The notes under the pieces: model-generated
What the model saw: the letters and a program-made list of their open reading frames with translations, nothing else
What the model was told of the DNA's origin: nothing
Databases searched by the model: none
Translations under genes and position numbers: made by a program
From: a virus
DNA: 45,006 bases
Strand: one strand, 5' to 3'
Virus genome (UHGV): UHGV-0250353
In this document: piece by piece, positions 1,482 through 39,119 of the stretch
How the letters are laid out: every line of letters starts with the position of its first letter
Position numbering within the stretch: position 1 is the first letter of the stretch

Positions 1482-3791
1482 TTAATACCCCGGCTGACCG
1501 CGAGTAGAGCGGCGAGCTTTAGAAATCGGTGAGTTGTTATCCTGTAACTGCGACGCTACTGTTTCACTGATTATAATACGTAAACGCCCTTCGTCATCAC
1601 GTTCTGTTACAGCAGAATCTACGCGCCCCGTAGTGTTATTAACTATAGTGACGTTATCACCGCCGGACTGGCCACCGTTTTGCCCCATAATCTCTTTCAT
1701 CTGCTGCGCAGTTCGTACGCGCGATGCGCCAGCAGGCATGATAACTTCCGGTTTGCCGCGTTCTGCGATGGTAGACATCTGCCCCGCTGATAACTGACCG
1801 CCCTGCTCACGTGCCGAGCGGATTTTGGCGATATTAGCCAGCCCCGCGGCAACGGCAGTACCTGCGGCAACCGGTGCCAGGAATGGGCCGACAACCGGTA
1901 TCGCTGCGGTAGACTTATATGCTTCGATAGCCGAGGTGTATGTTGCGATAGTGGCCTGGGCAATAGCAAACGCTTTATACGCGGTGGACGCCTCGCCAAA
2001 TGCCGTTTTAGCATTAGCTGCCATGTCACCGAAAGAACTACCTAAAGCCTCGGCGCGCTTCGTAGCATACTGCTCATTGATAGCGTTAAGCGCCGCCTGA
2101 TACTGTTCCTCGTTAATAAGCCCCTGTTCTCGATACTTATCAGCGACAGCCAGTTTCTGCTGTTCCTGGATGTCGAGGAGCTCAAGCTCAGCGGCGTTCT
2201 GCCCCATAATCTGGGCCATGAAGTCATCGCCTTTCTGCTGCTTTTCCTGCTGCTCTTTTCTTTTCTTATCCAGTTCTTCCTGTCTGGCCTGCTCGGCTGT
2301 GAGCATAATTTGAGTTTTGGCGTTTTCGTATTGCTGCTGGCTTATCGTTCCTGCGCGGTTGAACTCTTCAAGTTTTGCCAGTTTCTGCTCTTCGGCCGCC
2401 GTGATGCGAGAAATTTCATCTCCGGTTGTACGGTCAACCGTAGCAAGGAAATCTTCCGCGGCTTTCTTCTGGCGTTGTGCCGCCGTTTCTTCACGTTTGG
2501 CCTGCGCCGCCAGACGTTTCTCGTTCGATTTAGCCTCGCGGTCTGCCTTCTCTTTCTCGGTCTTGTCAATGCGGGCGATGTCTTGCTGTGCTTCCGTGTC
2601 ACGAGCAGCATTATACGCGGCGATCTGTTCTTTGGTTACAGCTTCACGTTTAGCAAACGCCTGCTTATCCAGTTCAGCTTGCGCCCGGATGCGCTCACGG
2701 TCGCTTAAGATGGCGATTTGCTGATTCTTGACGATAGCTTCGTTCTGCTCCTGGAACCTCTGCGTGGTTGAGTTAACGTTACGACCGAGATTCTTTTGGG
2801 CTTCCGCCGCTGCGTTTGCGGACTTCTCCGCGTTCTCCAGTGCTGTGGCGTTCTTGTTGGCGTTGTCTGTCAGGCGGATAAGTTCCGGATTCAACTGTTT
2901 TGTGTTACCGAGCCAGTCGGTAAACACATCGGCGATGCGGCGGGCATTCTCGGCGGTTGGCTCTTTGTTAAACGCGCTCTGCGCCGCTATCATCTCCAGC
3001 GCCTGGTCACGGTTAACCCCGAACTTACTGCTAAGCTCCGCTATATTCTGCGCCAGCATGTTGACGCCTACGATGTTACCCTCGTAAGTGCCGCCAAGTT
3101 TTTCTAACGTGTCGCCTACATCCGCACCCTTAGAGACCAATGCATCGTACTGGCTAATAGCGGATGCCGTGGAGGCTTTCCATGTCTCCCATGACTCGGC
3201 GTCCTCGCGGACAGCTTTAGCTGTTTGCTGCGCGATAAGGTCTGCGTTAGCCTTAGCCAGAGCAAGCTGAGTCTCCGCCGCTTCTCTGCTGATTTGGGTA
3301 AGCTGGATAAGGCCGTCTGTCAGTTCGAGGGAGCCAGATGCCGTTTGCTGGAAGGTGTCTTTTAACTGTTTCTGCGCGGCTTCCAGGTCTTTTGAACTGC
3401 CTTCTGCTTCGGTTAGCGATTTGTACAGGACACCGCCGATTGCCGAAGCAAGAGCAATCACAGCCCCGAGCACCGCGCCACCAGGTCCGAAAGCACCAGC
3501 AAGCTGCGAACCTTGTTGCCCGATTGCTACGAATGCAGACGTGCCGGATTGCAACTGGACTACCATGTCCTGCACCTGGAAGCCAACCTGCCCTGCAGCG
3601 TTACGGAACTTAGCGAAACCGTCGGAGGCCGCTTTAGACGTAGCGGAGTTTACTTTATTAACGTCCGGCGTTAGTTTGTTTACGGATGTGTCCGCCCGGT
3701 CTGCGGATGCCGCCATAGCGTCAAGCTGTTTAGCGGCCGCATCAGCGCCTTCTGTTTTTACTCTGGCAATTAGGGAAGCCGTATCAGCCAT
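1482..3791 (-). CDS. tail tape measure protein
   Basis: about 770 aa Ala/Gln/Glu-rich coiled-coil protein immediately downstream of chaperone pair; ATG 3791 with GAGG RBS preferred over TTG 3806 used by ORF track. Confidence 0.8.
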   Translation of the reverse strand: MADTASLIARVKTEGADAAAKQLDAMAASADRADTSVNKLTPDVNKVNSATSKAASDGFAKFRNAAGQVGFQVQDMVVQLQSGTSAFVAIGQQGSQLAGAFGPGGAVLGAVIALASAIGGVLYKSLTEAEGSSKDLEAAQKQLKDTFQQTASGSLELTDGLIQLTQISREAAETQLALAKANADLIAQQTAKAVREDAESWETWKASTASAISQYDALVSKGADVGDTLEKLGGTYEGNIVGVNMLAQNIAELSSKFGVNRDQALEMIAAQSAFNKEPTAENARRIADVFTDWLGNTKQLNPELIRLTDNANKNATALENAEKSANAAAEAQKNLGRNVNSTTQRFQEQNEAIVKNQQIAILSDRERIRAQAELDKQAFAKREAVTKEQIAAYNAARDTEAQQDIARIDKTEKEKADREAKSNEKRLAAQAKREETAAQRQKKAAEDFLATVDRTTGDEISRITAAEEQKLAKLEEFNRAGTISQQQYENAKTQIMLTAEQARQEELDKKRKEQQEKQQKGDDFMAQIMGQNAAELELLDIQEQQKLAVADKYREQGLINEEQYQAALNAINEQYATKRAEALGSSFGDMAANAKTAFGEASTAYKAFAIAQATIATYTSAIEAYKSTAAIPVVGPFLAPVAAGTAVAAGLANIAKIRSAREQGGQLSAGQMSTIAERGKPEVIMPAGASRVRTAQQMKEIMGQNGGQSGGDNVTIVNNTTGRVDSAVTERDDEGRLRIIISETVASQLQDNNSPISKARRSTRGQPGY

Positions 3792-6798: not shown

Positions 6799-6967
6799 AA
6801 ATATTATGAAAACGATATATGTAATCCGTGTATACGACGAAGAATGGGACGAGTGGGTTGATATTTACGCTGTAGGTAGTAAGGAAGAGGCCTCTAAAGA
6901 GATGGCAGAACGGAGTGACCGAGGTCAGTTAACTAACTTCTACGAAATGCCATTCAAAAGTGAGTAA
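6791..6967 (+). CDS. hypothetical acidic small protein
   Basis: in-frame ATG 6791 overlapping stop of upstream gene; ORF track frame 6749..6967. Confidence 0.45.
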   Translation: MSENIMKTIYVIRVYDEEWDEWVDIYAVGSKEEASKEMAERSDRGQLTNFYEMPFKSE

Positions 6968-6970
6968 GAA

Positions 6971-6996
6971 AAGGCCCCGAAAGGGGCCTTAGTTTT
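6971..6996. terminator. bidirectional intrinsic terminator AAGGCCCC-GAAA-GGGGCCTT + TTTT
   Basis: 8-bp GC stem, tetraloop, T-run on plus and A-run upstream; sits between convergent genes. Confidence 0.6.
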
Positions 6997-8167
6997 ATGC
7001 GTAGGTGATACGCTGGATAACAATAGACGACTGGTACTGATTGCCGGTAGCCTGGCCTTCGATGGACTGAGTGATTGACTCTGGTCCGCCAATCTCTGGC
7101 GTAACCGCCGTAAGTTCTGCGCGTTTCAGGCTGAAAGACATAGCCCCGTTTACCCCCGCCAGAATAGAGTTAATCTCTACCTGCTGTTCGTTGATAAACT
7201 TCTGAATCATCGCCATGTCGTACAGCTTACCGGAGATAGAGAAGGTGTTAGCCGCGCGACCACGTTCCACGAACGCAACGCTACTGTTGCCGAGTTCGAA
7301 CTGCGCAGAAGCACCGTTGTCGTTTGTGATGGTCAGAGTATCGCAACGCAACGGCGTAGAACCGTCGAACACGGACACATCTACGGATGAGAACGGCTCA
7401 TCGGTAAACGTCACCTGAGAGAAATCAGAACCTGCTGGCGGTGCAGAAAGAATCTCCTGACTTAGACCGATGAACGGGAAGCTGCCTGTCACCATCGCGT
7501 TTACGGCCTGTTCAATGGTGAATCCGGAGATTTCCACGCCTTTGGTCAACATGTACGCGTCCGGGTTCCCGCACTGTCCTTTGAACCATGTCAGGATGGA
7601 GAACGTCTTACATGCGTTACTGGTTTCCAGTTTGTCGCCGGTTTTAGCGTCGGTGGTTACAGTCTCTGCTGTCAGCGTGTGCTGAATGCCCGCACCCGTA
7701 ACTACAAGAGCAGAAACCGCGGTCACGATAAACGGTTTTGCGTTGTCGCCGGTTAAGTCGGTGAACGCAATCAGGTCGCCAACTTCTACACCGTCAGTAA
7801 TGAAGCTACCGGCAGCGCGGGTGAATGTTTTACCTGCTGGGGCGACCGTAATTTCAGCACCCGTAATCTCCACCCCATCCTGCCACGTAGAAGTCATCGC
7901 GCCCGCGAGGAAATCATCCTGGCTACGCGAGCTAAGTTCGATGGCGTACTCCCCGCTAACCTGCTTATTACCAGTGCGGATGGATGTAGTTTCACGGCTG
8001 CCGTCGAGTTCGTTGGAAGTCAGCGCATCGCGGGTTACGGCTGGAACGCCGCCCGTGTTACGCAACGGCGACCAGACCGGGTTAGTCGGTGTTACGCCCG
8101 GGGTATTTTCCACCACATAGAATTGCGCGGTATTCGCGCCCTTAAAAGGAGTTGTAGCCATATTCAC
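6995..8167 (-). CDS. major tail protein (putative)
   Basis: 390 aa Thr/Ser/Gly-rich structural-type protein; last large gene before chaperones/tape measure in transcription order. Confidence 0.5.
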   Translation of the reverse strand: MNMATTPFKGANTAQFYVVENTPGVTPTNPVWSPLRNTGGVPAVTRDALTSNELDGSRETTSIRTGNKQVSGEYAIELSSRSQDDFLAGAMTSTWQDGVEITGAEITVAPAGKTFTRAAGSFITDGVEVGDLIAFTDLTGDNAKPFIVTAVSALVVTGAGIQHTLTAETVTTDAKTGDKLETSNACKTFSILTWFKGQCGNPDAYMLTKGVEISGFTIEQAVNAMVTGSFPFIGLSQEILSAPPAGSDFSQVTFTDEPFSSVDVSVFDGSTPLRCDTLTITNDNGASAQFELGNSSVAFVERGRAANTFSISGKLYDMAMIQKFINEQQVEINSILAGVNGAMSFSLKRAELTAVTPEIGGPESITQSIEGQATGNQYQSSIVIQRITYA

Positions 8168-12548: not shown

Positions 12549-13250
12549 TTATTTCCTCAGGGCTTTAAGTTGCCGTTCAAATTCGGCAGGGTTCGATTTA
12601 TACAGAGCTAAACGCTCCGCTTCACTCATGTCTTTAAACGCTGGTGCGGCCCCGCCGCCTTTGCTACCGGAAGCCCCGCCGCCGGAAGCTGCATTTGCTT
12701 TAATCAAATGCGAAAACGCTTTGTGTTCACGCAGGTATTTGCGGAACTGTTCCGGGTCAGTCGTGATTACGTTGCCGTCTGCTCCGACAAACTTAGTAAC
12801 CACGTCATCGCCTTCAAACTCGGTCTTAACGAACGGAGCCAGGATGTCCACTGCTTCCGGGGTGATAAAGTCACCCGCGAAAGAGCCTAACACCGCTTTA
12901 CGTTCGCTGCCGAGGATACGCTCCGCCATTCTGGAGATGCGGCCGTCTTTCTCGGCTAACACCGGGTCATACTGGCTACGAATCGTCTTTTCAAACTCGT
13001 CCATCTTACCAGCGGCTTTTAACGCCTCCTGGTGTGCGCGCTGCCGTTCTTCTTCGGCCTCTTTTGCTTTGCGAGCGGCTTCTTTCTTCTCCGCCAGCAA
13101 TGCTTCCTGATTAGCCTTAAGCCCGGCTACTTCTTTCTCAATCAGCGCCTGAACTTCTTCAGCGGTGAACATTTTCGGCGCATCACCGCCGCCAGATTTA
13201 TCTTCTGTCCCAGCTTCTTCCTGGAACGGATAACGTAAAAAACGATTCAT
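12549..13250 (-). CDS. scaffolding protein
   Basis: ATG 13250 (MNRFLRY...) with AGGGGA RBS; charged alpha-helical composition; immediately upstream of capsid gene. Confidence 0.6.
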   Translation of the reverse strand: MNRFLRYPFQEEAGTEDKSGGGDAPKMFTAEEVQALIEKEVAGLKANQEALLAEKKEAARKAKEAEEERQRAHQEALKAAGKMDEFEKTIRSQYDPVLAEKDGRISRMAERILGSERKAVLGSFAGDFITPEAVDILAPFVKTEFEGDDVVTKFVGADGNVITTDPEQFRKYLREHKAFSHLIKANAASGGGASGSKGGGAAPAFKDMSEAERLALYKSNPAEFERQLKALRK

Positions 13251-13332
13251 AGTCAGTATGTCCCCTGGACGTTGGAATCCGGGCCACCCGGATTTACATG
13301 TCAAGAATAAATTATTCCAACATGCAAGGCAA

Positions 13333-13596
13333 CTATTCCAGAATATTCCTCACGTAATCCTGCAACATGAACACTTTCAGCCTCAGTTGCCGTACACATT
13401 CAGCGTTCTGAACGTCGATAGCCAAATCCTCGTCAGCATCACTACTTGGCGGTGCCAGCTTGCACGGCGGCTGCATCATTGTCGTATCCGGGGATGGAAT
13501 TGGCGTTTGCGACGGCGCGGGACTTGAGTTGCACGCGCTCAGGGTCAAAAGTGCACACGCTGCGGCTAGGCGTTTTAATGTACTTAACGACTTCAC
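13333..13596 (-). CDS. o-spanin (Rz1-like outer membrane lipoprotein)
   Basis: GTG start with GAGGTG RBS; signal peptide plus lipobox LTLSAC; Pro-rich mature part; overlaps 3' end of Rz-like gene in another frame. Confidence 0.6.
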   Translation of the reverse strand: MKSLSTLKRLAAACALLTLSACNSSPAPSQTPIPSPDTTMMQPPCKLAPPSSDADEDLAIDVQNAECVRQLRLKVFMLQDYVRNILE

Positions 13597-13828
13597 GGGT
13601 AATCACCTCTGATTTCGTCTTGCCTTCGTTGTCGGCGGCTGCGGCCTTTGACTCATCCTGCTGCTGCCGTTGTGTCTTCTTAGCTAACTCAGCCTTCGCT
13701 TTTTGGGTTTGTTCGGTAACGAGGTCAAGCCGTCCCGCATCCCAGCCGCGGTTGTATTGGTACCCCCCGTACAGCCATACCGTAAGCAAGCCTGCCGCCG
13801 TTAGTGTTGCTGTGTTGCTTAGATTCAT
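13442..13828 (-). CDS. i-spanin (Rz-like)
   Basis: N-terminal TM helix then charged coiled-coil region; contains overlapping lipoprotein gene. Confidence 0.65.
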   Translation of the reverse strand: MNLSNTATLTAAGLLTVWLYGGYQYNRGWDAGRLDLVTEQTQKAKAELAKKTQRQQQDESKAAAADNEGKTKSEVITREVVKYIKTPSRSVCTFDPERVQLKSRAVANANSIPGYDNDAAAVQAGTAK

Positions 13829-13852
13829 GTTTCCCCTTTCTCGATAAGTAAA

Positions 13853-13872
13853 GCCCCGCCTTAAAGCGGGGC
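13853..13872 (-). terminator. hairpin GCCCCGC-CUUAAA-GCGGGGC just upstream of Rz RBS
   Basis: 7-bp GC stem read directly; weak U tract; may be attenuator or RNA stabiliser. Confidence 0.35.
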
Positions 13873-13935
13873 GCTAGTCCTTATCATTTAAACATAGAAA
13901 CGGCGTAATCTCAGTAAACCAGTTACTCTTTACAC

Positions 13936-14071
13936 AAGCAAAAGAGTATGGCCCTTCCGAACGCGTCAGCGTAACTACACTCAGGACTTACGTCCCGCTC
14001 CGTTACCTGCCCGCGCCGCGGTCGCTCGTTCATACTTCACAAGCTCAGGTGGAGCTTATCATATTTTTAGT
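13936..14071 (-). repeat. conserved noncoding element, copy A (candidate structured RNA / leader)
   Basis: about 88 percent identical by hand alignment to 26454..26590; compensatory hairpin 13974..13985; no conserved ORF. Confidence 0.6.
14043..14071 (-). promoter_or_regulatory. candidate extended -10 promoter TTGACT-N17-TGaTAAGCT inside copy A
   Basis: hexamers read on minus strand; conserved in copy B. Confidence 0.4.
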
Positions 14072-14144
14072 GAAAAGTCAACTATTCGAATAGTTTATTC
14101 CAACATTTACAATTGATTGGAATAACTGGAATAATTACGAGCCA

Positions 14145-14165
14145 TAAAAAGCCCCTTTCGGGGCT
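14145..14165 (-). terminator. intrinsic terminator AGCCCC-UUUC-GGGGCU with U5 on minus RNA
   Basis: stem and A-run (plus) read directly, immediately after stop of 14171..14632. Confidence 0.55.
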
Positions 14166-14170
14166 TCAGT

Positions 14171-14632
14171 TTATTCTGGCTTAGTCACCTTCGCCGCTTT
14201 GCTTACACCCTCTACACCATCGGCATCGGTAACTTTAACGAAGTATTCACCGACCACATTAACCGTCAGAGACAGAGCTTCTTCTGGGGCGTTGACTACT
14301 TCCTTACCGTCTTTGTACCAGGTCAGCACATACGGCGCTTTGCCCGCCTTAACTTCGACAGTGATAGTTGCGCTGCCGTCTGCCAGTTCCGCATCCTGCG
14401 GTTGCACAGAGAAATACACGTCGCCAGCGTCCGCCAGATACGGAATCTCATAAAGCATACCCGCCGCGGGCAGCGCGATGCCTGTTTTATCCGCAAACGG
14501 CATATCGTCTACCGGTGTACCGAGTACACTTTCGTCTTCAATAAACACCACGTTCTCACCAGAGCCGGATACACGGGCGTACTGGACTACGCGGCGCGCG
14601 GGTACATCGGTTACTTTGAAAAAGCCCATCAT
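14171..14632 (-). CDS. Ig-like domain protein
   Basis: TITVEVKAGKAPYVLTWYKDGKEV...YFVKVTDADG Ig-like pattern. Confidence 0.5.
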   Translation of the reverse strand: MMGFFKVTDVPARRVVQYARVSGSGENVVFIEDESVLGTPVDDMPFADKTGIALPAAGMLYEIPYLADAGDVYFSVQPQDAELADGSATITVEVKAGKAPYVLTWYKDGKEVVNAPEEALSLTVNVVGEYFVKVTDADGVEGVSKAAKVTKPE

Positions 14633-18474: not shown

Positions 18475-19001
18475 TACTCGCCCCCCGGTTTAACAGCCTT
18501 AACGAAACGAATCTCGATAGGTTCAGAACCCTCGCCAGTCGATTCTTCTTTCTTATTCAGCCCCAGCTTCGCAGCGGCAAACGTAGCAGAGATGCCAGCA
18601 GCCCCTGTCTCAGTGAAATACGCCTCTTCCAGCGCCTGTGCTGTTTCATAGGCTTCTGCAAACGCGGGTATCTCACGCAGCCACAGCTTGATAATCGGGA
18701 TAGTGACGCCGATGTGTAGGGCAAAGCGGGCCAGTGACGGGGGTTTATCCTGAATAAGCGGGCGTTCGTCACCCTTAGACGTAGGTACGAGTTCCCACGA
18801 CGTGCGGTCGAAGAACTCGATTAACTCGTCGCAATAGTCCGGGTCCCACAACGCGGCGGAATTACGGGATGATTGATAAAGGCTCTGTTTACCGCGCGGT
18901 CGTTTACGGCGACGGTTTGCGCTAACAGCTTCTTCATGTGCAGCTTGCACCACCTCTGGCGATGGCTGCTTAAGTTTCAGCTTCATAGAATCCCCTTGCA
19001 T
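18474..19001 (-). CDS. terminase small subunit (putative)
   Basis: immediately upstream of and overlapping large subunit; ATG 19001 or 18986 preferred over GTG 19025 of ORF track. Confidence 0.55.
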   Translation of the reverse strand: MQGDSMKLKLKQPSPEVVQAAHEEAVSANRRRKRPRGKQSLYQSSRNSAALWDPDYCDELIEFFDRTSWELVPTSKGDERPLIQDKPPSLARFALHIGVTIPIIKLWLREIPAFAEAYETAQALEEAYFTETGAAGISATFAAAKLGLNKKEESTGEGSEPIEIRFVKAVKPGGE

Positions 19002-19205
19002 ATGCGTCTGACCATCAGAGCGCACCAGACGCGCCCTGCGCGTCTAAAGGGATTATATAAGGGGATTGGGCGGGATGTACAGAAAAGCCCTCCGTAGAGG
19101 ACTTGTATCAGTTATATAGGCCGTGTCGTGGTGCTCTTTTACCATCGCCGCCGTAATGGTCGTTAGCTACGGCGATAGCCCATGCGTTAGGCATGATTAA
19201 CAGTT

Positions 19206-19385
19206 TCATTTTAAGAATCTCAGCGCGGCGTCCGCGATACCGGACACCACTAGCCCGAAAAACATAGGCCACCAGATATATCTTGGCAGATTGGTAAATG
19301 TTTCGGGCTTAGTCCAGAAAGCCATTAAAAACGCGAGCCAAAACACCATATAACTAATGTTGCTAAGTAATTCTAAAATATTCAT
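19206..19385 (-). CDS. small membrane protein (59 aa, two hydrophobic segments)
   Basis: ATGA overlap with upstream gene; hand translation MNILELLSNISYMVFWLAFLMAFW...; below ORF-track cut-off. Confidence 0.4.
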   Translation of the reverse strand: MNILELLSNISYMVFWLAFLMAFWTKPETFTNLPRYIWWPMFFGLVVSGIADAALRFLK

Positions 19386-19618
19386 TCCCCGCTCTCCCCT
19401 TTAGCAATGCGTTGCTCAGTTTTAGTGATACCCCGGCGCGTGAATAACACCGGGCTGGTCTTAACGTGCGTCATCAGACGGTTGTTATAAATTACGTGGC
19501 GCTCGCAATCAACGTCTTTGCTGTACTTCGCAATCGTCATTTCGTTTATGCCAGTTTGCCGGCATGTCTCGGCCATCGTGCCGAATTCTTTAATCAGGTT
19601 CGGAATGCTGGTAATCAA
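19382..19618 (-). CDS. small HTH-like DNA-binding protein (putative)
   Basis: FGTMAETCRQTGINEMTIAKY HTH-like segment. Confidence 0.4.
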   Translation of the reverse strand: MITSIPNLIKEFGTMAETCRQTGINEMTIAKYSKDVDCERHVIYNNRLMTHVKTSPVLFTRRGITKTEQRIAKGESGE

Positions 19619-19896
19619 TTTGTCTCTCCTTTAGTGACAGTAATGTCTTTCTTATCCAGGTCTACAAAAATCGTATGTGCACCGCTTGTGTAAACGTGGC
19701 ACCGCGGGACTAGGCTTTCTGTGGTCCATAAAAACTCTTGCGGACGACCGGCACGCACTCTCCTAATTTCAAACTTGCCGTATTTAATGACAACCCCGTA
19801 GTTATGTGTTGCAGATGGGTTGCAGAATTTACTATAAACGGCTTCTTCTATCGCAGATTCAATATCAGTGAATCTCGAAGCAACAGTACGTGCCAT
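19615..19896 (-). CDS. hypothetical protein
   Basis: ORF track 93 aa, coupled to neighbours. Confidence 0.5.
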   Translation of the reverse strand: MARTVASRFTDIESAIEEAVYSKFCNPSATHNYGVVIKYGKFEIRRVRAGRPQEFLWTTESLVPRCHVYTSGAHTIFVDLDKKDITVTKGETN

Positions 19897-21457: not shown

Positions 21458-21943
21458 TCATTTAACGGCTCTCCCAATAGCCTCAGCCTCTTGCCACGGT
21501 TTACCGTCGAACAGCGCCAGACGCCCGGCTGCACGGCGACGCAGGCCGAGTAATGGTTTGCCGTTCTGGTTGATGAACAGCGCCAGCTTGGCACGCAGTG
21601 TTGCAATATCACCTGAGCGCAGCGCCTTACCCGTGCCAGTAGTAGCCGCAATCACACCAGCACCCGCGTTGTAGACCAGGTCACACACAGCGTCGAACTG
21701 CGCCTGTGTCAGTGAATGGTGCGCCACCGAATCCACCGCAGCTACGGCCTTAGCCATATCGCGATTAAGTAACAGGAGGCCTTGTCCCGGTGTGATGGTC
21801 TTGCCTGGAGTCACGTCCGGCCCGTAGTGGCCGTAGCCAATAGTAAGGTACTTCTCATTCGGCGTAGCACGATACGCAGTTCCGCGGAATCCCTCGAACG
21901 CAGCACAGAAATGCAATCCATTATCTGAAATATTTCGAGACAC
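21458..21943 (-). CDS. endolysin, T4/P22-type lysozyme (GH24-like)
   Basis: ISDNGLHFCAAFEGFRG...YLTIGYGHYG matches phage lysozyme N-terminal catalytic region; GTG 21943 with GGAGGA RBS preferred over TTG 21994. Confidence 0.75.
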   Translation of the reverse strand: MSRNISDNGLHFCAAFEGFRGTAYRATPNEKYLTIGYGHYGPDVTPGKTITPGQGLLLLNRDMAKAVAAVDSVAHHSLTQAQFDAVCDLVYNAGAGVIAATTGTGKALRSGDIATLRAKLALFINQNGKPLLGLRRRAAGRLALFDGKPWQEAEAIGRAVK

Positions 21944-22193
21944 GCTTATGTCCTCCGTATGACAGCCACGCCTGACGAATCTGGCGCAGCGCAACTAATG
22001 TGATTAATGTCTCAGGCAGCGTAGGTGACATGCTGCCCTGTAACAGGTGGATGCATCCGGCGGCGCAGACGATAGCAGTCAGGATATAGAGCACCCGGCC
22101 AAATAATCCGTCGTCCACGCTGGGGTGATACACATTAAACAGCGATGCGCCCCCGATGGCCAGCATACCGCCGAACCAGAATAACTCATTCAT
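21921..22193 (-). CDS. holin/antiholin-like membrane protein
   Basis: 90 aa with two hydrophobic helices, between holin and endolysin. Confidence 0.5.
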   Translation of the reverse strand: MNELFWFGGMLAIGGASLFNVYHPSVDDGLFGRVLYILTAIVCAAGCIHLLQGSMSPTLPETLITLVALRQIRQAWLSYGGHKRVSKYFR

Positions 22194-22494
22194 CCGGGCC
22201 TCCTCGACGTGAGATGTATTCCCCGGCGACGATACCGGAGAGGCGGGAATAGATGGGCATCCAGAGAATGGCGATGATGAATCCGAGGCCAGCTATCTCT
22301 CGCTCCCCAGTAATGCCAAACCATTGCGCGGCAAGAGGTGCACCAAACACGGCACAGGTGAAGCCGGTTGCAATAAAGCAGAAGCCGTCAATGGGGCCAG
22401 AAATAACGGACTTATGTTGTCGTAGTCCGATTACCCCTCCGGCTAGCGCGGCAGCGAGAAGCCAGCCCGTCACTGTTTCAGTAAATTTATCCAA
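22186..22494 (-). CDS. holin (putative, three TM segments)
   Basis: 102 aa, three hydrophobic segments, TTG start with GGAGGA RBS, heads lysis cassette. Confidence 0.55.
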   Translation of the reverse strand: MDKFTETVTGWLLAAALAGGVIGLRQHKSVISGPIDGFCFIATGFTCAVFGAPLAAQWFGITGEREIAGLGFIIAILWMPIYSRLSGIVAGEYISRRGGPDE

Positions 22495-22553: not shown

Positions 22554-22994
22554 TTATCCTAATAGTTGTTTGGTAATAATCTTGCCGCCGGTGTTGGTGT
22601 CGAACTTCGATGCAACAGCTACGCCGCCATGTGCTGAATAACCACATTCCATAGCCGCCAGTGCATAAGGAGAGCCGGACCCAACGGCGGCAAAACCGTC
22701 TGCAATAGGGATAACAGAGCTTAGTGCACAATCCCATGATTTATAGAACGCGACTTTATACACCTTTTCTGTGTCTTTCACGAACACAAGGGCTTCGAAA
22801 TCGAAGTCGTATGATTTTGGATTAAGTACGCCATTATCACGGATTAGCATAACCCCAACTCCTGCGTCCCCGGCTACCCCAATTATGAAATGGTCATTCT
22901 CGTATATCTTTGTGTCTGTGTTGTAACAGTTACTCCCGCACACAACACAGGTGTCACAGGCCATTGTCTTTCCGTCAAACGCGATAGTCGTCAT
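22554..22994 (-). CDS. HslV/proteasome-like Ntn-hydrolase peptidase
   Basis: MTTIAFDGK N-terminus (Thr after Met), K...IIGVAGD, GSGSPYALAAM aligning by eye to HslV motifs; GGAG RBS. Confidence 0.6.
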   Translation of the reverse strand: MTTIAFDGKTMACDTCVVCGSNCYNTDTKIYENDHFIIGVAGDAGVGVMLIRDNGVLNPKSYDFDFEALVFVKDTEKVYKVAFYKSWDCALSSVIPIADGFAAVGSGSPYALAAMECGYSAHGGVAVASKFDTNTGGKIITKQLLG

Positions 22995-23284
22995 TTATGT
23001 CTCCAGATGTATTGTCGTCTCTGTGGTTTCGTCGGGATATCTTCATACCCCAGCGATTTCCAGTAATTAAATAACCGGTTAGCGATTGCTGCGCGTTCCT
23101 GTGTTTTAAACTCACCCAGGTTAACTGCCTTCCCGTTCTGGAACCCACAGGCGCGGATAGCTTTGCGCCTGGCCTGAATCTCCGGGTACAGCGCGTTACG
23201 GCGGCGCTTGTGTATTCGGGCGGTTGCTCTCGGTGACAGCGGCACGAGGCCGCTTCGTTTCAGGATGTCAGTTGCCCGGCTCAT
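22991..23284 (-). CDS. hypothetical basic protein with AP2-like segment
   Basis: ATG 23284 (ATGA overlap) preferred; GKAVNLGEFKTQERAAIA resembles AP2-type DNA-binding pattern. Confidence 0.4.
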   Translation of the reverse strand: MSRATDILKRSGLVPLSPRATARIHKRRRNALYPEIQARRKAIRACGFQNGKAVNLGEFKTQERAAIANRLFNYWKSLGYEDIPTKPQRRQYIWRHK

Positions 23285-23580
23285 GCCATCCTCCCACATT
23301 TCGAGCATGTCTGGAAGTCGTCCACATCGTGCATAACCCACTCATGCTTGCATACCTGCGCATCCTCTTTACGGCAACCGGACTGCCCCGTAACATCTTC
23401 AACCCCTTCCACGTGTGTAACGGCCCCACAGTTCACGCACTCGACATAATCCGGGAACTGGTCTTTGTATTTCTGTAACTCGGCTTCGAGCGCCATTAAA
23501 TCAGAGTACCGCACGCGCACATACTCGCCGCTATATTGGGCCTCCGGCGACAGTGTACGCCAGTCGAATAGTTTAATCAT
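23281..23580 (-). CDS. zinc-ribbon protein (paralogous C-terminal module)
   Basis: ATG 23580 with GGAGG RBS; C-terminus CRKEDAQVCKHEWV...CSKCG shared with 24020..24589. Confidence 0.5.
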   Translation of the reverse strand: MIKLFDWRTLSPEAQYSGEYVRVRYSDLMALEAELQKYKDQFPDYVECVNCGAVTHVEGVEDVTGQSGCRKEDAQVCKHEWVMHDVDDFQTCSKCGRMA

Positions 23581-23818
23581 CACCGCGCCTCCGTAAATCG
23601 CGAAGCGCAATAATCCCGTCTAACATTCCGATGGCGTGGTCGACTGTGAAATCCTCATCCTCACAAAGATTCCGCAGATGTAATACGGCCTTGACCAATT
23701 TATGGTAATCCTCTGTGTAACAAAGCTCGCCCTCTTCCGCGCGCTGTTCGTTTAACTGAAATAGCGTTGCGCCAGGTACAGTACCAAGCGGAACAGCATT
23801 AAAAGTACGAATAGTCAT
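23573..23818 (-). CDS. hypothetical protein
   Basis: ATG 23818 with AGGAG RBS preferred over upstream start of ORF track. Confidence 0.45.
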   Translation of the reverse strand: MTIRTFNAVPLGTVPGATLFQLNEQRAEEGELCYTEDYHKLVKAVLHLRNLCEDEDFTVDHAIGMLDGIIALRDLRRRGDD

Positions 23819-23819
23819 G

Positions 23820-24023
23820 TTATTTCTCCTGTTTACCAAGTCGCTTAGGTGAGCAAATAGCGCGTACCTCTGAATCGTTGGGCTTGTCACCCTGGAACAG
23901 GAAGTGCGCGTTCTCTGCGGCGCGTGCCGCTGACTGGCACGCCTCCATCGAGTAAAACGTTTCCGATGTCGCCAGGTGCATCTGGCCTGCGGACAGTACC
24001 CATATAAATAAGATGCTGGTCAT
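23820..24023 (-). CDS. small protein with N-terminal hydrophobic/signal-like segment
   Basis: ORF track 67 aa; MTSILFIWVLSAGQMHLA. Confidence 0.45.
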   Translation of the reverse strand: MTSILFIWVLSAGQMHLATSETFYSMEACQSAARAAENAHFLFQGDKPNDSEVRAICSPKRLGKQEK

Positions 24024-24589
24024 TTCAGTTTAGCCCCGCAATCAAGACACTTTTTAGTAAAACCCGGCGCAAAGCCTTTGCGCAAACCGACGGTATTAGC
24101 GTGTTGGCAATCGCTCGATTCCGATTCTTGCTTACCGCATTTAGCGCAAATGAAGTAGTCCCCTTTTTCATCTAGCACCCAATCATGCTCGCATTCCTGA
24201 GTATCTTCCTTACGGCAATCAGATTGCTCAGGTTCATGCGGAAACTTATTAGCTAGAACGGATACCTGCCTACCGAGTAAATTAAGCGCTTTCTGCAGCT
24301 CTGTCTCCCGCGCCGACGCATCGCGTAACTGATTCTTAAGTGACTGCAACTCATGCGCCAGGTCTTCGCACTGGTTGTTATTTACCTGCTGACGTAAACT
24401 GTCTTTCAGCGCTCGTATTTCGTCGTCCTTACCGGCGATATGCTGCTGTAGGTTGTGAATTACCTGCTTGACCTCATCAAGGTCGGATATCCGCACAGAC
24501 ACATCGAAAGATGTGACATCTTTCTTATTTACCTGCTGCCGTAGCTGGTCAATCAGGTACTCGAATACTACATCATTTGCGTTCTGCAT
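24020..24589 (-). CDS. coiled-coil protein with C-terminal zinc-ribbon module
   Basis: 189 aa; CRKEDTQECEHDWV...CAKCG and CLDCG motifs. Confidence 0.55.
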   Translation of the reverse strand: MQNANDVVFEYLIDQLRQQVNKKDVTSFDVSVRISDLDEVKQVIHNLQQHIAGKDDEIRALKDSLRQQVNNNQCEDLAHELQSLKNQLRDASARETELQKALNLLGRQVSVLANKFPHEPEQSDCRKEDTQECEHDWVLDEKGDYFICAKCGKQESESSDCQHANTVGLRKGFAPGFTKKCLDCGAKLK

Positions 24590-24745
24590 TTTTAGCCTCT
24601 CTGTTCATAAGTTCCAGTAATAACCTAGCTGTTTGGCGCTCACGGGTGTTTCTCGGTGACGAGGCGTAGAACTCTAGCACCTCGCGTGATGGTTCTTGTG
24701 CGGTTTTACTGTTCACTCTGTCTCTCCACTCGTTGGTGTAAATGA

Positions 24746-24774
24746 ATAGTAGCCTATTCTATCTCAGTGTGCAA
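24746..24774 (-). promoter_or_regulatory. sigma70-like promoter TTGCAC-N17-TACTAT with operator GAATAGtagcCTATTC (24744..24759)
   Basis: read on minus strand; identical architecture to 26253..26281 and 4670..4698. Confidence 0.45.
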
Positions 24775-24781
24775 GTAAATT

Positions 24782-24955
24782 TTATTGGCGTGTTATAGAA
24801 TCTATGAACGACAGTAACGCGCGCTCCGCTTCTGCTTCTCTTTCTTCAAGCGACCAGGTAGCGGATTCCTCTGTTGCCGTTGCTATATCTGTTTTCACAT
24901 CAATCATCGTGTTGATTAACGCGATTAGTCGTTCGGCCTGTTCTTTAGTAATCAT
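24782..24955 (-). CDS. small hypothetical protein (57 aa)
   Basis: ATG 24955 with GGAG RBS; hand translation MITKEQAERLIALINTMIDV...; antisense to ORF-track ORF 24804..25016. Confidence 0.4.
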   Translation of the reverse strand: MITKEQAERLIALINTMIDVKTDIATATEESATWSLEEREAEAERALLSFIDSITRQ

Positions 24956-25080
24956 TGTTGCATCTCCTGCAATAGTCGCTTCTATTGTTGCGTTTGGTGA
25001 AATAGAACAAAAATGAGAAAAATGATACGCTGCTGTGTAGCAGCGTAAGTCACAAAGCCAAATAGTAACCTATTGACCTG

Positions 25081-25290
25081 TTACACCAGCGATGGTGGCT
25101 CGGGTAACGGCATCCGGTGAGTTACATTAGCTTCATCGTAATAGGATGAGTCATACGAATGAATCTCCCAACTAACATAATCTCCATATCGGAGATAGTA
25201 CCCCTCGTGGACTTGTCTTAAGTCGTCGTAAACAAGTACGTCCTCGCCTTCTTCCGGCATCCGCTCACTACACTTAATCCACTCACCCAT
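25081..25290 (-). CDS. hypothetical acidic protein
   Basis: ORF track 69 aa. Confidence 0.45.
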   Translation of the reverse strand: MGEWIKCSERMPEEGEDVLVYDDLRQVHEGYYLRYGDYVSWEIHSYDSSYYDEANVTHRMPLPEPPSLV

Positions 25291-25293
25291 ATC

Positions 25294-25437
25294 TCACCTC
25301 GGATTTGCAACAGACAACACACCAGCTTTCCACGCCCGCCACGCGAGACGAGTCTTAACGTTCAGGTACTCTTTCTTCGAACCCTTATTAACCGGCAGAC
25401 CCTCGACGACGGCCCACCGTTCGAATGCTTCTCTCAT
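25294..25437 (-). CDS. small hypothetical protein (47 aa)
   Basis: ATG 25437 two codons after upstream stop; hand translation MREAFERWAVVEGLPVNKGSKKEY... Confidence 0.35.
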   Translation of the reverse strand: MREAFERWAVVEGLPVNKGSKKEYLNVKTRLAWRAWKAGVLSVANPR

Positions 25438-25440
25438 AAC

Positions 25441-25686
25441 TTAGTCCTCATCATCTTCTAAGTCGGGGTACACTATGAAATCGCCAAGCCTTTGCAACTC
25501 TGCACCTGCCATAAAATAACCAAGTGCTTCGGCTCTTTCGGAATCTGTTTTAAACTCAGACAGAGGATATCTTTCGTAGAACTTGTTAATTAATAGCGCA
25601 TGGTCAAACTTAGTTGCATCATAATTTTTCATAACTAATAACTCCGATAACTTTAGATTTCTCGCGCCGGGTGCAACCATGCTCAA
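25441..25686 (-). CDS. hypothetical protein
   Basis: ORF track 81 aa. Confidence 0.5.
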   Translation of the reverse strand: MSMVAPGARNLKLSELLVMKNYDATKFDHALLINKFYERYPLSEFKTDSERAEALGYFMAGAELQRLGDFIVYPDLEDDED

Positions 25687-25870
25687 TGTAGTAGCGCGCC
25701 TGCTTGACGCTTTCGCAACGCGTCAACGTAACCCACCAGAACAACCCGACCCTCACCTGCACGGCGGGTGTAATTCGTTTCTCACCGAAGGCGGTAACCC
25801 ACTCTTCGCTAACTATGCGGTATTTACTTAACACGGCAACCTCCCTCAGAGTCGTCGGCACGAGCATCAT
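25619..25870 (-). CDS. hypothetical protein (true start uncertain)
   Basis: ORF track 83 aa; overlaps both neighbours substantially. Confidence 0.35.
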   Translation of the reverse strand: MMLVPTTLREVAVLSKYRIVSEEWVTAFGEKRITPAVQVRVGLFWWVTLTRCESVKQARYYIEHGCTRREKSKVIGVISYEKL

Positions 25871-26033
25871 GATTCGATGCCGTTCGGATAGAACGCAAAC
25901 TATGTAGCATTCTCCCGGCGGAAGCTGTGATAATCGTTACCCCATCTAAAATAACAACCTCGTACCTGTTTACCCGGAAATGCACTTTCTCCAGTTTATG
26001 ATGTTTCAGCTCTTCAAATAATTCTTCCATCAC
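25824..26033 (-). CDS. hypothetical protein (true start uncertain)
   Basis: ORF track 69 aa. Confidence 0.35.
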   Translation of the reverse strand: MMEELFEELKHHKLEKVHFRVNRYEVVILDGVTIITASAGRMLHSLRSIRTASNHDARADDSEGGCRVK

Positions 26034-26227
26034 TTCACCCCTTTGAATTTAAAATTGTTGCCGATGAGTTCTAAATACTCCGCGCTTACAGTTGCATGGC
26101 CGCCAGTAAATACATTGCGAAGTTTACAAATGGCAGCACTGCCTCTGTTGTTGGTGGAAAATACGGAGTACAAACATCCCGACTTTTTACTACGGACCAA
26201 CTGACCCTTCTTAAACATAACCCTCAC
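26030..26227 (-). CDS. hypothetical protein, first gene of leftward early operon
   Basis: ATG 26227 with GAGGGG RBS about 19 nt downstream of promoter 26253..26281. Confidence 0.5.
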   Translation of the reverse strand: MRVMFKKGQLVRSKKSGCLYSVFSTNNRGSAAICKLRNVFTGGHATVSAEYLELIGNNFKFKGVK

Positions 26228-26252
26228 CCCTCTGTCTCGTTTCGATAAGTGA

Positions 26253-26379: not shown

Positions 26380-26453
26380 CTACCTTGCTCACGGCAACTA
26401 TAGAAACTTTTAATTATCAGTGACTTGGGTATTTAGGCGGGATTAACAATAGA

Positions 26454-26590
26454 CTATGGCCCTTCCGAATGCGGGCAGCGACACTACACTCAGTGCTAAC
26501 GCACCGCTCCGTTCTCCTGCCGCACCGCGGTCGCTTGTTCATACTTCACAAGCTCAGGTGGAGCTTAGCATATTTTTAGTGAAAAGTCAA
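26454..26590 (-). repeat. conserved noncoding element, copy B
   Basis: paralogue of 13936..14071; compensatory hairpin 26493..26504. Confidence 0.6.
26562..26590 (-). promoter_or_regulatory. candidate extended -10 promoter TTGACT-N17-TGcTAAGCT inside copy B
   Basis: same motif and position as in copy A. Confidence 0.4.
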
Positions 26591-38766: not shown

Positions 38767-38951
38767 AATTGTTTTGTGTTAGCTCAAACGTACCTGAGTT
38801 CAAAGAGGGTGAAGAATATCTGGCCTACTATAACGGCATTGAGTACCGCGTAATTTATGATGACTCGGGCTACATAATCGCCGATTACGATGATGACTCG
38901 GGCTACATAATCGCCGAGTTCTTTAACGACGGTTTGGTGGAGTTCGAATGA
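38763..38951 (+). CDS. hypothetical protein with internal duplication
   Basis: ORF track 62 aa; contains perfect 27-nt direct repeat 38858..38884 / 38891..38917. Confidence 0.5.
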   Translation: MKLFCVSSNVPEFKEGEEYLAYYNGIEYRVIYDDSGYIIADYDDDSGYIIAEFFNDGLVEFE

Positions 38952-39088: not shown

Positions 39089-39092
39089 AGAA

Positions 39093-39119
39093 AAGGCCCC
39101 AAACGGGGCCTTAGTTTTA
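39093..39119. terminator. bidirectional intrinsic terminator AAGGCCCC-AAAC-GGGGCCTT + TTTT
   Basis: near-identical to terminator 6971..6996; between convergent replication arm and tailspike. Confidence 0.6.

Follow-up and report, generated by a model that had tools for sequence, protein, structure and literature searches.

The minus-strand locus 13333..13828 of the viral genome UHGV-0250353 (45,006 nucleotides, analysed at full length and referred to below as the window) is, judging from its sequence, an ordinary overlapped two-component spanin pair of a Kagunavirus-like Escherichia coli phage. Two overlapping ORFs were found on this strand at the coordinates given by an earlier sequence-only reading of the DNA, whose proposal of an Rz/Rz1-type pair was borne out by the ORFs, by the lipobox of the shorter product and by matches to PHROG 'Rz-like spanin' profiles. 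The findings as one whole are very probably best explained by a spanin pair of the Jersey family, with a lambda-type mode of action and promoter/leader-driven expression, in a Kagunavirus-like siphophage (Guernseyvirinae). The spanin function predicted for this Jersey-family pair rests on its signals, its architecture and its family assignment.

The longer ORF (13442..13828, minus strand; ORF list and PHROG profile) starts with an ATG, 5 nt downstream of a Shine-Dalgarno sequence read from the DNA (AAGGGG, 13833..13838, minus strand), and encodes a 128-aa Rz-like i-spanin that matched phrog_2536, 'Rz-like spanin', over its full length (9.6e-50). Its hydropathy profile contained one hydrophobic stretch, at N-terminal residues 3-21, and none elsewhere, predicting a single N-terminal membrane segment. 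This predicted segment is weakly hydrophobic (KD19 0.98) and has no N-terminal Lys or Arg; its hydrophobicity is near that of the 'sidste' allele of the Jersey family and much below that of lambda Rz. The periplasmic part, with 31% charged residues, contains the single cysteine of the protein, Cys92. Of the Rz-like features described earlier, the charge of the periplasmic part was seen in its composition and the N-terminal transmembrane segment, weakly, in hydropathy. A single-sequence AF2 model of the i-spanin placed helices at residues 5-63 and 69-79 with low confidence (mean pLDDT 55.7); for the Jersey family, the i-spanin periplasmic domain has been predicted to consist of a helix, a beta-containing linker and a second helix (Kongari 2018, PMC6139136).

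The shorter ORF (13333..13596, minus strand; ORF list, lipobox rule and PHROG) encodes an 87-aa Rz1-like lipoprotein, the o-spanin, from a GTG codon in the +1 frame relative to Rz, and its Shine-Dalgarno sequence (GAGGTG, 13604..13609, minus strand) lies inside the Rz coding sequence, 7 nt upstream of the start. Both frames are used over a 155-bp segment (13442..13596, minus strand, from the ORF coordinates), and the o-spanin gene continues for 109 nt beyond the Rz stop, which is the 'overlapped' architecture of the spanin class. The signal peptide has K2, K8 and R9 in its n-region, a hydrophobic core and the lipobox L-S-A-C, and the segment AACALLTLSAC, with Cys22, satisfied a PROSITE PS51257-like lipoprotein rule. 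The mature N-terminus reads C-N-S, with Asn and not Asp at position +2, as would be expected of a lipoprotein destined for the outer membrane. The mature protein (66 aa) has nine prolines among its first 30 residues, and its Cys45 and Cys67, together with Rz Cys92, supply periplasmic cysteines for intermolecular disulfides at the conserved positions of the family. The protein matched phrog_5672 (4.6e-30) and phrog_1267 (2.3e-20), and all other ORFs with a lipoprotein signal in the window are buried antisense in larger genes. All the traits that the sequence-only reading had listed for this gene (an out-of-frame lipoprotein gene with a GTG start, an LTLSAC lipobox and a Pro-rich product, extending past the Rz stop) were thus seen.

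That this 87-codon out-of-frame ORF is open by chance, only the Rz-like protein being produced, is an explanation to which we give almost no credence. It could draw on the GTG start, on the many records that annotate a 47-48-aa version or none, and on the exact 87-aa sequence, for which no match was found in a collection of 15 billion proteins. Against these points, in seven diverged relatives the locus measured exactly 496 nt, free of indels, with both frames open, that of the o-spanin at equal length, and with the lipobox Cys retained. This Cys was kept in eight relatives despite differing signal peptides, while the lipobox itself varied (LSAC, LASC, LSGC and LNGC, and ITGC in Shemara). In the non-overlapped tail, which codes for Rz1 only, 67% of the nucleotide differences were synonymous versus 15-27% elsewhere. 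The GAGGTG Shine-Dalgarno sequence is, moreover, a strong one, and in the Cornellvirus Shemara the homologous o-spanin gene is separate from the i-spanin gene, the two overlapping by 8 bp only. As to annotation, the o-spanin of many records and of PHROG 5672 is only 47-48 aa long and lacks the signal peptide, and other records have no o-spanin. The gene is correctly annotated as the ORF of 87 aa that begins with GTG and includes the lipobox, a point of some practical use to annotators.

The whole window is ~91% identical to Escherichia phage K1ind1, and equivalent genes in the equivalent place are annotated as spanins in K1ind1 (both genes), Jersey, Shemara, sidste and many other records. In full-length tblastn comparisons, the i-spanin was 75.8% identical to K1ind1 ORF5 and 61.6% to its Jersey counterpart, and the o-spanin 95.4% identical to K1ind1 ORF6 and 64.4% to that of Jersey. 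A 'Jersey' family of overlapped spanins with 27 members, K1ind1-3 among them, has been described, and the spanins of phage Jersey itself have a 155-bp overlap and conserved o-spanin residues Cys45 and Cys67 (Kongari 2018, PMC6139136). The present pair belongs to this family both by the homology of its two proteins and by its 155-bp overlap and Cys45/Cys67. Compared with K1ind1 ORF5/ORF6 and Jersey gp09/gp10 (62-76% identity for the i-spanin, 64-95% for the o-spanin), it has proteins of equal length (128 and 87 aa), an identical +1 overlap, the same cysteines and the same location between Hoc-like and scaffold genes, and differs in allele only. The position is conserved across Kagunavirus, Jerseyvirus and Cornellvirus, and both the spanin pair and its place among the head genes are already known, having been published or annotated for the whole subfamily Guernseyvirinae. 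The arrangement, which had been implied to be unusual, is instead the conserved, previously annotated state of Guernseyvirinae, represented in the published Jersey family (PMC6139136). As a spanin finding it carries little weight, since it confirms, in one more Kagunavirus-like genome, a gene pair that was already known. At the level of the allele, no megablast match among 50,697 phage records covered the first 66-123 nt of the i-spanin gene, and the exact i-spanin protein was seen solely in metagenome assemblies. The uncovered nucleotides encode the cytoplasmic tip, the membrane segment and the juxtamembrane part.

The pair lies inside the head-gene cluster, flanked by the gene of a Hoc-like Ig-domain decoration protein (14171..14632) and the scaffold gene (12549..13250/13304), in agreement with the Ig-like and scaffold neighbours named earlier. 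PHROG matches also confirmed holin, antiholin and endolysin genes at 21458..22494: a holin (22186..22494) and a second holin or antiholin (21921..22193), with holin profile matches of 3.5e-29 and 1.1e-33 for the two genes, and a lysozyme-type endolysin (21458..21994; 1.7e-48), all on the minus strand. The gap between the spanin pair and these genes measured 7.6 kb, close to the ~8 kb first estimated, so that the adjacency to a lysis cassette which is usual for spanins, though not defining, was not found here, an exception that also applies to T4 and to Guernseyvirinae as a whole. No spanin candidate was present beside the endolysin, and the pair is the sole credible one in the window.

A non-lytic role would account for this siting among head genes, away from the endolysin, and the pair could then be an envelope accessory for superinfection exclusion or receptor masking, of the T5 Llp or Cor type, or else a head-assembly helper. 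We consider this highly improbable. The distance of 7.6 kb within the head module speaks for it, as do the lack of homology to experimentally tested spanins and the literature, in which an experimental test of any Jersey-family spanin was not found. However, overlapping frames that encode an anchored periplasmic protein and a short, Pro-rich lipoprotein of the outer membrane are the defining signature of two-component spanins, and unlinked spanins are known: the T4 genes PseT.3/PseT.2 lie far from both the holin (t) and the endolysin (e) genes (PMC6139136). Linkage of spanins to holin and endolysin is therefore not required, even if the T4 genes are of the 'separated' type and their sequence family is unrelated to the present one. 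In addition, the periplasmic cysteines are conserved as in other spanins, and the accessory role would leave a phage with a Gram-negative host and a canonical holin and endolysin with no alternative spanin in the window.

Sequence homology to the spanins of lambda or P2 was considered and rejected. Neither protein gave a relevant Pfam match at E <= 0.1, the lambda Rz/Rz1 families included, and the NCBIfam model NF038368 P2_Rz1 (LysC) scored 14.8 bits (E = 0.024), below its cut-off of 27 bits. By these searches the pair is an analogue of lambda Rz/Rz1 and not a sequence homologue. It resembles P2 LysB/LysC, the prototype of the overlapped class, in that the o-spanin gene, in the +1 frame, starts within the i-spanin gene and passes its stop, and in its topology signals, but significant sequence similarity to that pair is absent. 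The P2 genes belong to a lysis cassette. With lambda Rz/Rz1 it shares the predicted combination of an inner-membrane-anchored, probably coiled protein with a Pro-rich outer-membrane lipoprotein, the periplasmic cysteines for homodimer disulfides, and a mechanism that would be alike, with action after degradation of the wall. It differs from lambda in that its o-spanin gene is overlapped and not fully embedded, its mature o-spanin has 66 aa versus 40, and the pair does not adjoin the holin and endolysin genes.

In the mechanism that we propose, both spanins would be translated from one mRNA, the i-spanin from the ATG at 13828 and the o-spanin from the GTG at 13596 with its own Shine-Dalgarno sequence. 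The i-spanin would be anchored in the inner membrane by its N-terminus and expose a charged helical domain to the periplasm, while the o-spanin would be exported, lipid-modified at Cys22 and, because Asn rather than Asp occupies position +2, directed to the outer membrane. By analogy with lambda, the spanins would probably form disulfide-linked homodimers (through Rz Cys92 and through Rz1 Cys45 and Cys67), and the i- and o-spanin would join via their C-terminal parts to span the periplasm. The resulting complexes would be restrained by the peptidoglycan mesh and, once holin and endolysin had destroyed the wall, would disrupt or fuse the outer membrane as the last step of lysis. Spanins of this kind would be harmless until the wall is gone, and tight linkage to holin and endolysin would therefore be unnecessary.

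The spanins are the first genes past a terminator-like hairpin, a promoter-like site and a conserved leader hairpin, so that the earlier suggestion of a possible control by a conserved leader at 13936..14071 agreed with the position of the genes directly downstream of it. The terminator-like hairpin (AAGCCCC-GAAA-GGGGCUU followed by UUUUAU; 14149..14166, minus strand) was found by the terminator scan and in the sequence; it is a member of repeat family D3, which consists of terminator-like hairpins, and lies just past the Hoc-like gene, where it parts the spanin unit from the head genes that precede it. It is followed by a cluster of TTATTCC / GGAATAA boxes (14095..14134, minus strand) upstream of the promoter-like site, with a further box, TTGGAATAA, upstream of the scaffold gene (13312..13320). 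These boxes may be regulator binding sites; ATTATTCCAGTTATTCC was conserved in all six upstream-of-Rz sequences (6/6). The promoter-like site deduced from the sequence, TTGACT-N14-TGn-TAAGCT (14053..14081, minus strand), combines a near-consensus -35, a 17-bp spacer and an extended -10 with a weak -10 hexamer, TAAGCT, which matches at 3/6 positions; the site was sub-threshold in the consensus promoter scan. In Jersey-type phages, the -35 and the TGn-TAmGCT of this site are conserved. Spanin expression most likely begins at this sigma-70-type promoter-like site (14081..14053), past the Hoc-like terminator, and the transcript would then cross a leader of ~220 nt with two hairpins, the conserved one and a terminal GC-rich one.

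The conserved leader hairpin (ACCGCGG...CGCGUUCGGAAGGG; 13952..14022, minus strand) is a three-tier structure of ~70 nt, 95-99% identical across 148 phage records. MAFFT alignments of the leader were structurally inconsistent in the interior and RNAalifold recovered the fold only partly, and the fold was therefore judged by folding each sequence type independently. Four sequence types folded in this way to one architecture, with differing apical and middle stems. The outer stem showed C-G to U-A covariation. A pattern scan of IMG/VR gave 45 loci, and Rfam, at both gathering and permissive thresholds, gave no credible match for the leader or for its second copy (see below). The terminal hairpin (GCCCCGC-UUUAAG-GCGGGGC, then UUUACUUAUC; 13853..13872, minus strand), 24 nt upstream of the Rz start, was the top terminator-like match of the scan. 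Its sequence looks like a terminator/attenuator or a 5'-end stabiliser, and its stem is kept by compensatory changes in Jersey-type phages (GCCCGGC/GCCGGGC and GCCCGAC/GUCGGGC).

The promoter-like site and leader hairpin recur, 87-89% identical to the first copy, as a second module (26447..26590, minus strand; repeat families D1 and D12; nhmmer 1.4e-43), whose hairpin core lies at 26460..26531. Homology of the two copies sets in precisely with the -35 hexamer TTGACT, and the TTATTCC / GGAATAA boxes are missing from the second one. Both module positions recur in three IMG/VR contigs, and the leader was matched twice in 43 of 181 phage records; with an nhmmer profile built from 41 leader variants, phage Jersey showed no second copy and Shemara none at all. 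By these matches the duplication of the module is limited to some Kagunaviruses.

An alternative account of expression, which we regard as unlikely, would leave the spanins without a promoter of their own and have them read through from the terminase-portal-head transcript, the conserved sequence being a site of RNA processing or stability, or one acting at the DNA level. A T7 R-site-like RNase III site would be one such processing site, and the ~25-bp irregular leader hairpin is in size and shape like an RNase III substrate, a resemblance that may favour this account. It also gains from the weak -10 hexamer, from the failure of the consensus scan to list the site, and from the location of all genes from ~26.2 kb down to the tail on one strand. 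Yet a canonical terminator-like hairpin with a U-run stands between the Hoc-like gene and the element, the homology of the copies starts exactly at TTGACT and includes a conserved and properly spaced TGn of the extended -10, Jersey-type phages keep both the -35 and the TGn, and the second copy lies between divergent genes, an arrangement that requires a promoter. Initiation at the promoter-like site thus remained our preferred reading.

The second copy heads an array of minus-strand genes that includes holin and endolysin, so both lysis gene groups of this phage stand behind copies of one promoter/leader module. The holin and endolysin genes, placed by the sequence-only reading in an 'early arm' as opposed to late spanins, share their strand with the terminase, portal, head and tail genes and lie upstream of these. 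Moreover, in the only Kagunavirus time-course RNA-seq dataset found, that of vB_Eco_K1B4, the lysozyme and the head and tail genes fall into one 'middle' class (PMC12645636). The text of that paper states no temporal class for the spanin homologues, genes 030/031, and its supplements give coordinates only. The picture of an 'early' cassette and 'late' spanins thus found no support and was corrected: all lysis genes are transcribed in one direction.

Since the same module heads the holin/endolysin array, the unlinked lysis genes may share one control through its two copies. We put forward, as a tentative and rather doubtful idea, that the module is a cis-acting RNA control element undescribed in Rfam, either a put-like antiterminator or an RNase III/attenuation switch, synchronising unlinked lysis genes in some Kagunaviruses. 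In the put-like version, RNA polymerase would be carried through the hairpin before Rz and through the other terminators of the long same-strand array. The likeness to HK022 putL/putR and to the lambda pR'-6S-tR' leader lies in a structured, conserved RNA, here in two copies, just past promoter-like sites, with the copies heading same-strand arrays that contain terminator-like hairpins. The differences are that put consists of two stem-loops and the present leader of one three-tier hairpin, and that the leader has neither a sequence or Rfam match nor an identified Q-like regulator. A further parallel is that lambda, too, has its lysis genes in first place behind the late leader. When the small minus-strand ORFs at 22991..26227 were searched with PHROG and Pfam for a late regulator, Q-like or other, only families of unknown function were returned. 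The promoter/leader module is the one element of this locus with the potential to repay experiments.

Two further interpretations of the leader were set aside. The idea of a sigma-dependent pause element, as in lambda pR', was dropped because Jersey-type leaders have a deletion of the TATGAA segment that lies in the initially transcribed region. A small-protein gene (a 36-aa ORF at 13923..14033 and a 41-aa ORF at 26417..26542) was rejected because Jersey-type phages keep the element without the segment that carries the start codon. These leader ORFs are labelled 'hypothetical protein' in some records.

All spanin, head and lysis genes discussed here lie on the minus strand. The i-spanin (Rz-like) gene, at 13442..13828, is an ORF of 128 aa with an ATG start, and the o-spanin (Rz1-like) gene, at 13333..13596, is an 87-aa ORF that starts at a GTG, lies in the +1 frame relative to the former, has 155 bp in common with it and extends 109 nt past its stop. 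Both starts are preceded by a ribosome-binding sequence of their own: AAGGGG 5 nt 5' of the ATG and GAGGTG 7 nt 5' of the GTG. The 128-aa product contains a single Cys (Cys92) and one hydrophobic stretch, at residues 3-21, after which comes a domain with 31% charged residues; its single-sequence AlphaFold2 model, of low confidence, showed a long helix (5-63) and a short one (69-79). The membrane segment of this allele is of weak hydrophobicity, with no basic residue at the N-terminus, which is the weakest structural point of the i-spanin reading. The 87-aa product begins with MKSLSTLKRLAAACALLTLSAC and conforms to a PROSITE PS51257-like lipoprotein rule, with Cys22 directly followed by Asn; Pro occupies 9 of the first 30 residues of its mature part, and additional cysteines are found at positions 45 and 67. 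Since the ORFs, their overlap, the hydrophobic stretch, the lipobox and the Pro-rich part are all present, the overlapping Rz-like/lipoprotein pair described by the sequence-only reading was fully matched, every element being found in place.

A six-frame scan of the whole window for lipoprotein signals returned the 87-aa ORF as the sole one not antisense within a larger gene. The PHROG 'Rz-like spanin' profile matched the 128-aa protein over its full length (9.6e-50), and profiles of the same name matched the 87-aa protein (4.6e-30 and 2.3e-20). The locus was then compared among seven diverged phages (window, K1ind1, SE124_2FR, sidste, Kenya-K56, Jersey and FSL SP-101). In all seven it measured 496 nt, with zero indels, and both frames were open; the lipobox Cys was kept despite a varying signal peptide (LSAC, LASC, LSGC, LNGC). 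In this comparison, the synonymous share of nucleotide differences was 67% in the small ORF past the Rz stop and 15-27% in the overlap and Rz. Taken together, the indel-free locus, the open frames, the kept Cys and the 67% synonymous tail provide direct evidence for translation of the out-of-frame ORF and for purifying selection on it.

The pair very probably represents a two-component spanin of the 'Jersey' family, an overlapped spanin family with 27 members, including K1ind1-3, K1G, K1H and SETP3 (Kongari et al. 2018, PMC6139136). The window pair shares the 155-bp overlap that this study reports for Jersey, as well as Cys45 and Cys67, conserved in the o-spanins of the family. Neither lambda Rz/Rz1 nor P2 LysB/LysC showed sequence homology to the pair: Pfam gave no match, and NCBIfam P2_Rz1 scored 14.8 bits, the cut-off being 27. 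A 3.3-kb region is matched by 484 phage records, with ~91% identity to many Kagunavirus genomes, among them Escherichia phages K1ind1, K1ind2 and vB_EcoS_XY1; in the K1ind1 record ORF5 and ORF6, at the homologous positions, are annotated as spanins with the note 'overlapping gene'. Given these annotated genes and the published family, the spanin finding correctly recovers a feature that was already known and annotated. No experimental test of any Jersey-family spanin was found in the literature.

The new details are allelic only and concern the divergent 5' end of the i-spanin gene. This divergent allele (13706..13828, minus) encodes the cytoplasmic tip, the membrane segment and the region next to the membrane; the first 66-123 nt of the gene were covered by no megablast match among 50,697 phage records, the remainder of the locus is ~94% identical to Kagunavirus genomes, and the exact i-spanin protein was found only in metagenome assemblies (Logan, ENA). 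In many records the o-spanin is either unannotated or given as 47-48 aa from an internal Met start, without signal peptide and lipobox (for example 1606..1749 and 1606..1752 in the relatives' contigs L005 and L006, vB_Eco_K1B4 gene 031 and PHROG 5672), and the exact 87-aa sequence is absent from a 15-billion-protein collection.

Upstream of Rz lie the gene for a Hoc-like, Ig-like decoration protein (14171..14632, minus) and, further upstream, that for a Mu-F-like head morphogenesis protein; downstream of the pair lie the scaffold gene (12549..13250, or to 13304 with a TTG start; minus) and that of the major head protein. At a distance of 7.6 kb are a lysozyme-type endolysin gene (21458..21994, minus) and two genes of the holin family (22186..22494 and 21921..22193, minus), and neither their neighbouring genes nor the six-frame lipoprotein-signal scan of the window yielded a spanin candidate adjoining the endolysin. 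This location among head genes is the conserved, already annotated state of Guernseyvirinae. The same Hoc-like and scaffold flanks occur in Jerseyvirus (Jersey, sidste, FSL SP-101, Kenya-K56) and in Cornellvirus Shemara, where the overlap is just 8 bp; in Jersey and Shemara, holin and endolysin are also thousands of bases from the spanins, on the same strand, upstream of the terminase genes. In one published Kagunavirus genome, ORF7 and ORF8 are listed as spanins and ORF66-68 as holins and endolysin (PMC7203180). Kongari et al. (2018, PMC6139136) also point out that the spanin genes of T4 are not linked to those for holin and endolysin.

Topology signals, gene architecture, family homology and selection on both frames were observed for the pair itself; its mode of action we infer from the lambda paradigm. 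The i-spanin would be anchored in the inner membrane and the o-spanin, by lipid, in the outer membrane, their C-terminal parts binding each other across the periplasm. Such complexes would be caged by peptidoglycan and become active only once holin and endolysin have removed it; such a dependence on wall removal would explain why spanin genes tolerate separation from the other lysis genes.

The scaffold start is probably the ATG at 13250 (233 aa, as in the Jersey annotation), not the TTG at 13304 (251 aa, K1ind1 annotation); in the long form, the PHROG match does not begin until residue 28. The 82-nt spacer between Rz1 and scaffold holds a hairpin, AAUCCGGG-UGGC-CCGGAUU (13275..13293, minus), next to a TTGACA hexamer.

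Rz is separated from the Hoc-like gene by a spacer of 342 nt which, read on the minus strand, opens with a canonical terminator-like hairpin and U-run (14166..14149). Further along come a promoter-like site (TTGACT-N14-TGn-TAAGCT, 14081..14053), a ~220-nt leader and, ending 24 nt 5' of the Rz start codon, a GC-rich hairpin (13872..13853). The putative promoter has a weak -10 hexamer and is absent from the consensus scan listing. Directly upstream of it, TTATTCC/GGAATAA boxes cluster with a perfect palindrome, CTATTCGAATAG (14082..14134), and a pair, TTGGAATAA/TGGAATA (13312..13340), precedes the scaffold gene; the boxes, conserved in Jersey-type phages and missing from the second promoter copy, may be binding sites of a late regulator. 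The stem of the GC-rich hairpin is kept via compensatory changes in Jersey-type phages (GCCCCGC, GCCCGGC, GCCCGAC). This hairpin has a poor U-tract and may serve as an attenuator or 5' stabiliser, not as a full terminator. Upstream of the leader, this spacer is an insertion hot spot in relatives, with a 180-aa opposite-strand ORF in SE124_2FR, a metallophosphatase gene in Shemara and a length of 926 bp in vB_Eco_K1B4 (18783..19709); the coordinates are 2475..3014 and 5670..6803 in the relatives' records L006 and L010.

The promoter-like site and about the first 130 nt of the leader are duplicated at 26447..26590 (minus), 87-89% identical to the copy upstream of Rz, and the homology begins exactly at the -35 hexamer. 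The second copy, in a divergent intergenic region, heads a minus-strand array that comprises small ORFs and the holin, endolysin, terminase, portal and head genes; lysis cassette and structural genes are therefore not placed in opposing arms. The contrast drawn by the sequence-only reading between early-arm lysis genes and late spanins was thus not upheld: the array and the spanins share a strand, each lies behind a copy of the same module, and the sole Kagunavirus time-course RNA-seq found (PMC12645636) assigns lysozyme, Mu-F-like, capsid and tail genes to one 'middle' class; the spanin homologues, genes 030 and 031 of that phage, are not named in the study.

This duplicated module is better handled as a separate finding. 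The hairpin core of the leader (~70 nt) occupies 13952..14022 and, in the second copy, 26460..26531 (both minus). A pattern scan of IMG/VR found 45 loci; together with the window and loci from phage records, they make up 54 instances, whose 15 distinct cores fall into four sequence types. Each type, folded independently, formed the same three-tier hairpin, with varying middle stems, varying apical stems (GGGAC/GUCC, GGGCG/CGCCC, GGUGC/GCAC, CACGUC/GACGUG) and a C-G to U-A covariation in the outer stem. Upstream of Rz, Kagunavirus-like and Jersey-like phages carry types A and B, and type D occupies the site that corresponds to the second copy in the window; type C, that second copy itself, is located upstream of Rz in one relative's contig (L008), which suggests exchange of the leader between the two sites. 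Phage Jersey has a single copy, upstream of Rz, and Shemara a different structured leader. At 95-99% identity in 148 phage records, the element upstream of Rz is better conserved than the spanin genes themselves. It had no Rfam match. As the small ORF has no start in Jersey-type versions, a peptide gene was ruled out. The element may serve as a put-like cis-antiterminator, as a site of RNase III processing or as an attenuator; no regulator gene was identified for it.

Elsewhere in the window, five promoter-like repeats of 30 nt, TTGACAnnTGAATAGnnnnCTATTATAGTT, lie on the plus strand at 26242, 29851, 29895, 32640 and 36416, with near-consensus -35 and -10 and an AATAG-N4-CTATT palindrome within the spacer; four precede plus-strand replication-region genes, and the five look like operator-bearing early promoters. 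Two paralogous proteins (23281..23610 and 24020..24589, both minus), both phrog_6094 matches, share a Cys-rich C-terminal motif, CRKED.Q.C.H.WV....F.C.KCG, that looks like a zinc ribbon. A terminator-like hairpin, AAAAGGCCCC-GAAA-GGGGCCTT, is present in three copies (6967..6997, 14144..14174 and 39089..39119); as two of them are 94% identical and at module borders, these may be bidirectional terminators. Also present are a 51-nt repeat (6281 and 30887) and a tandem duplication of 33 nt (38857..38922).
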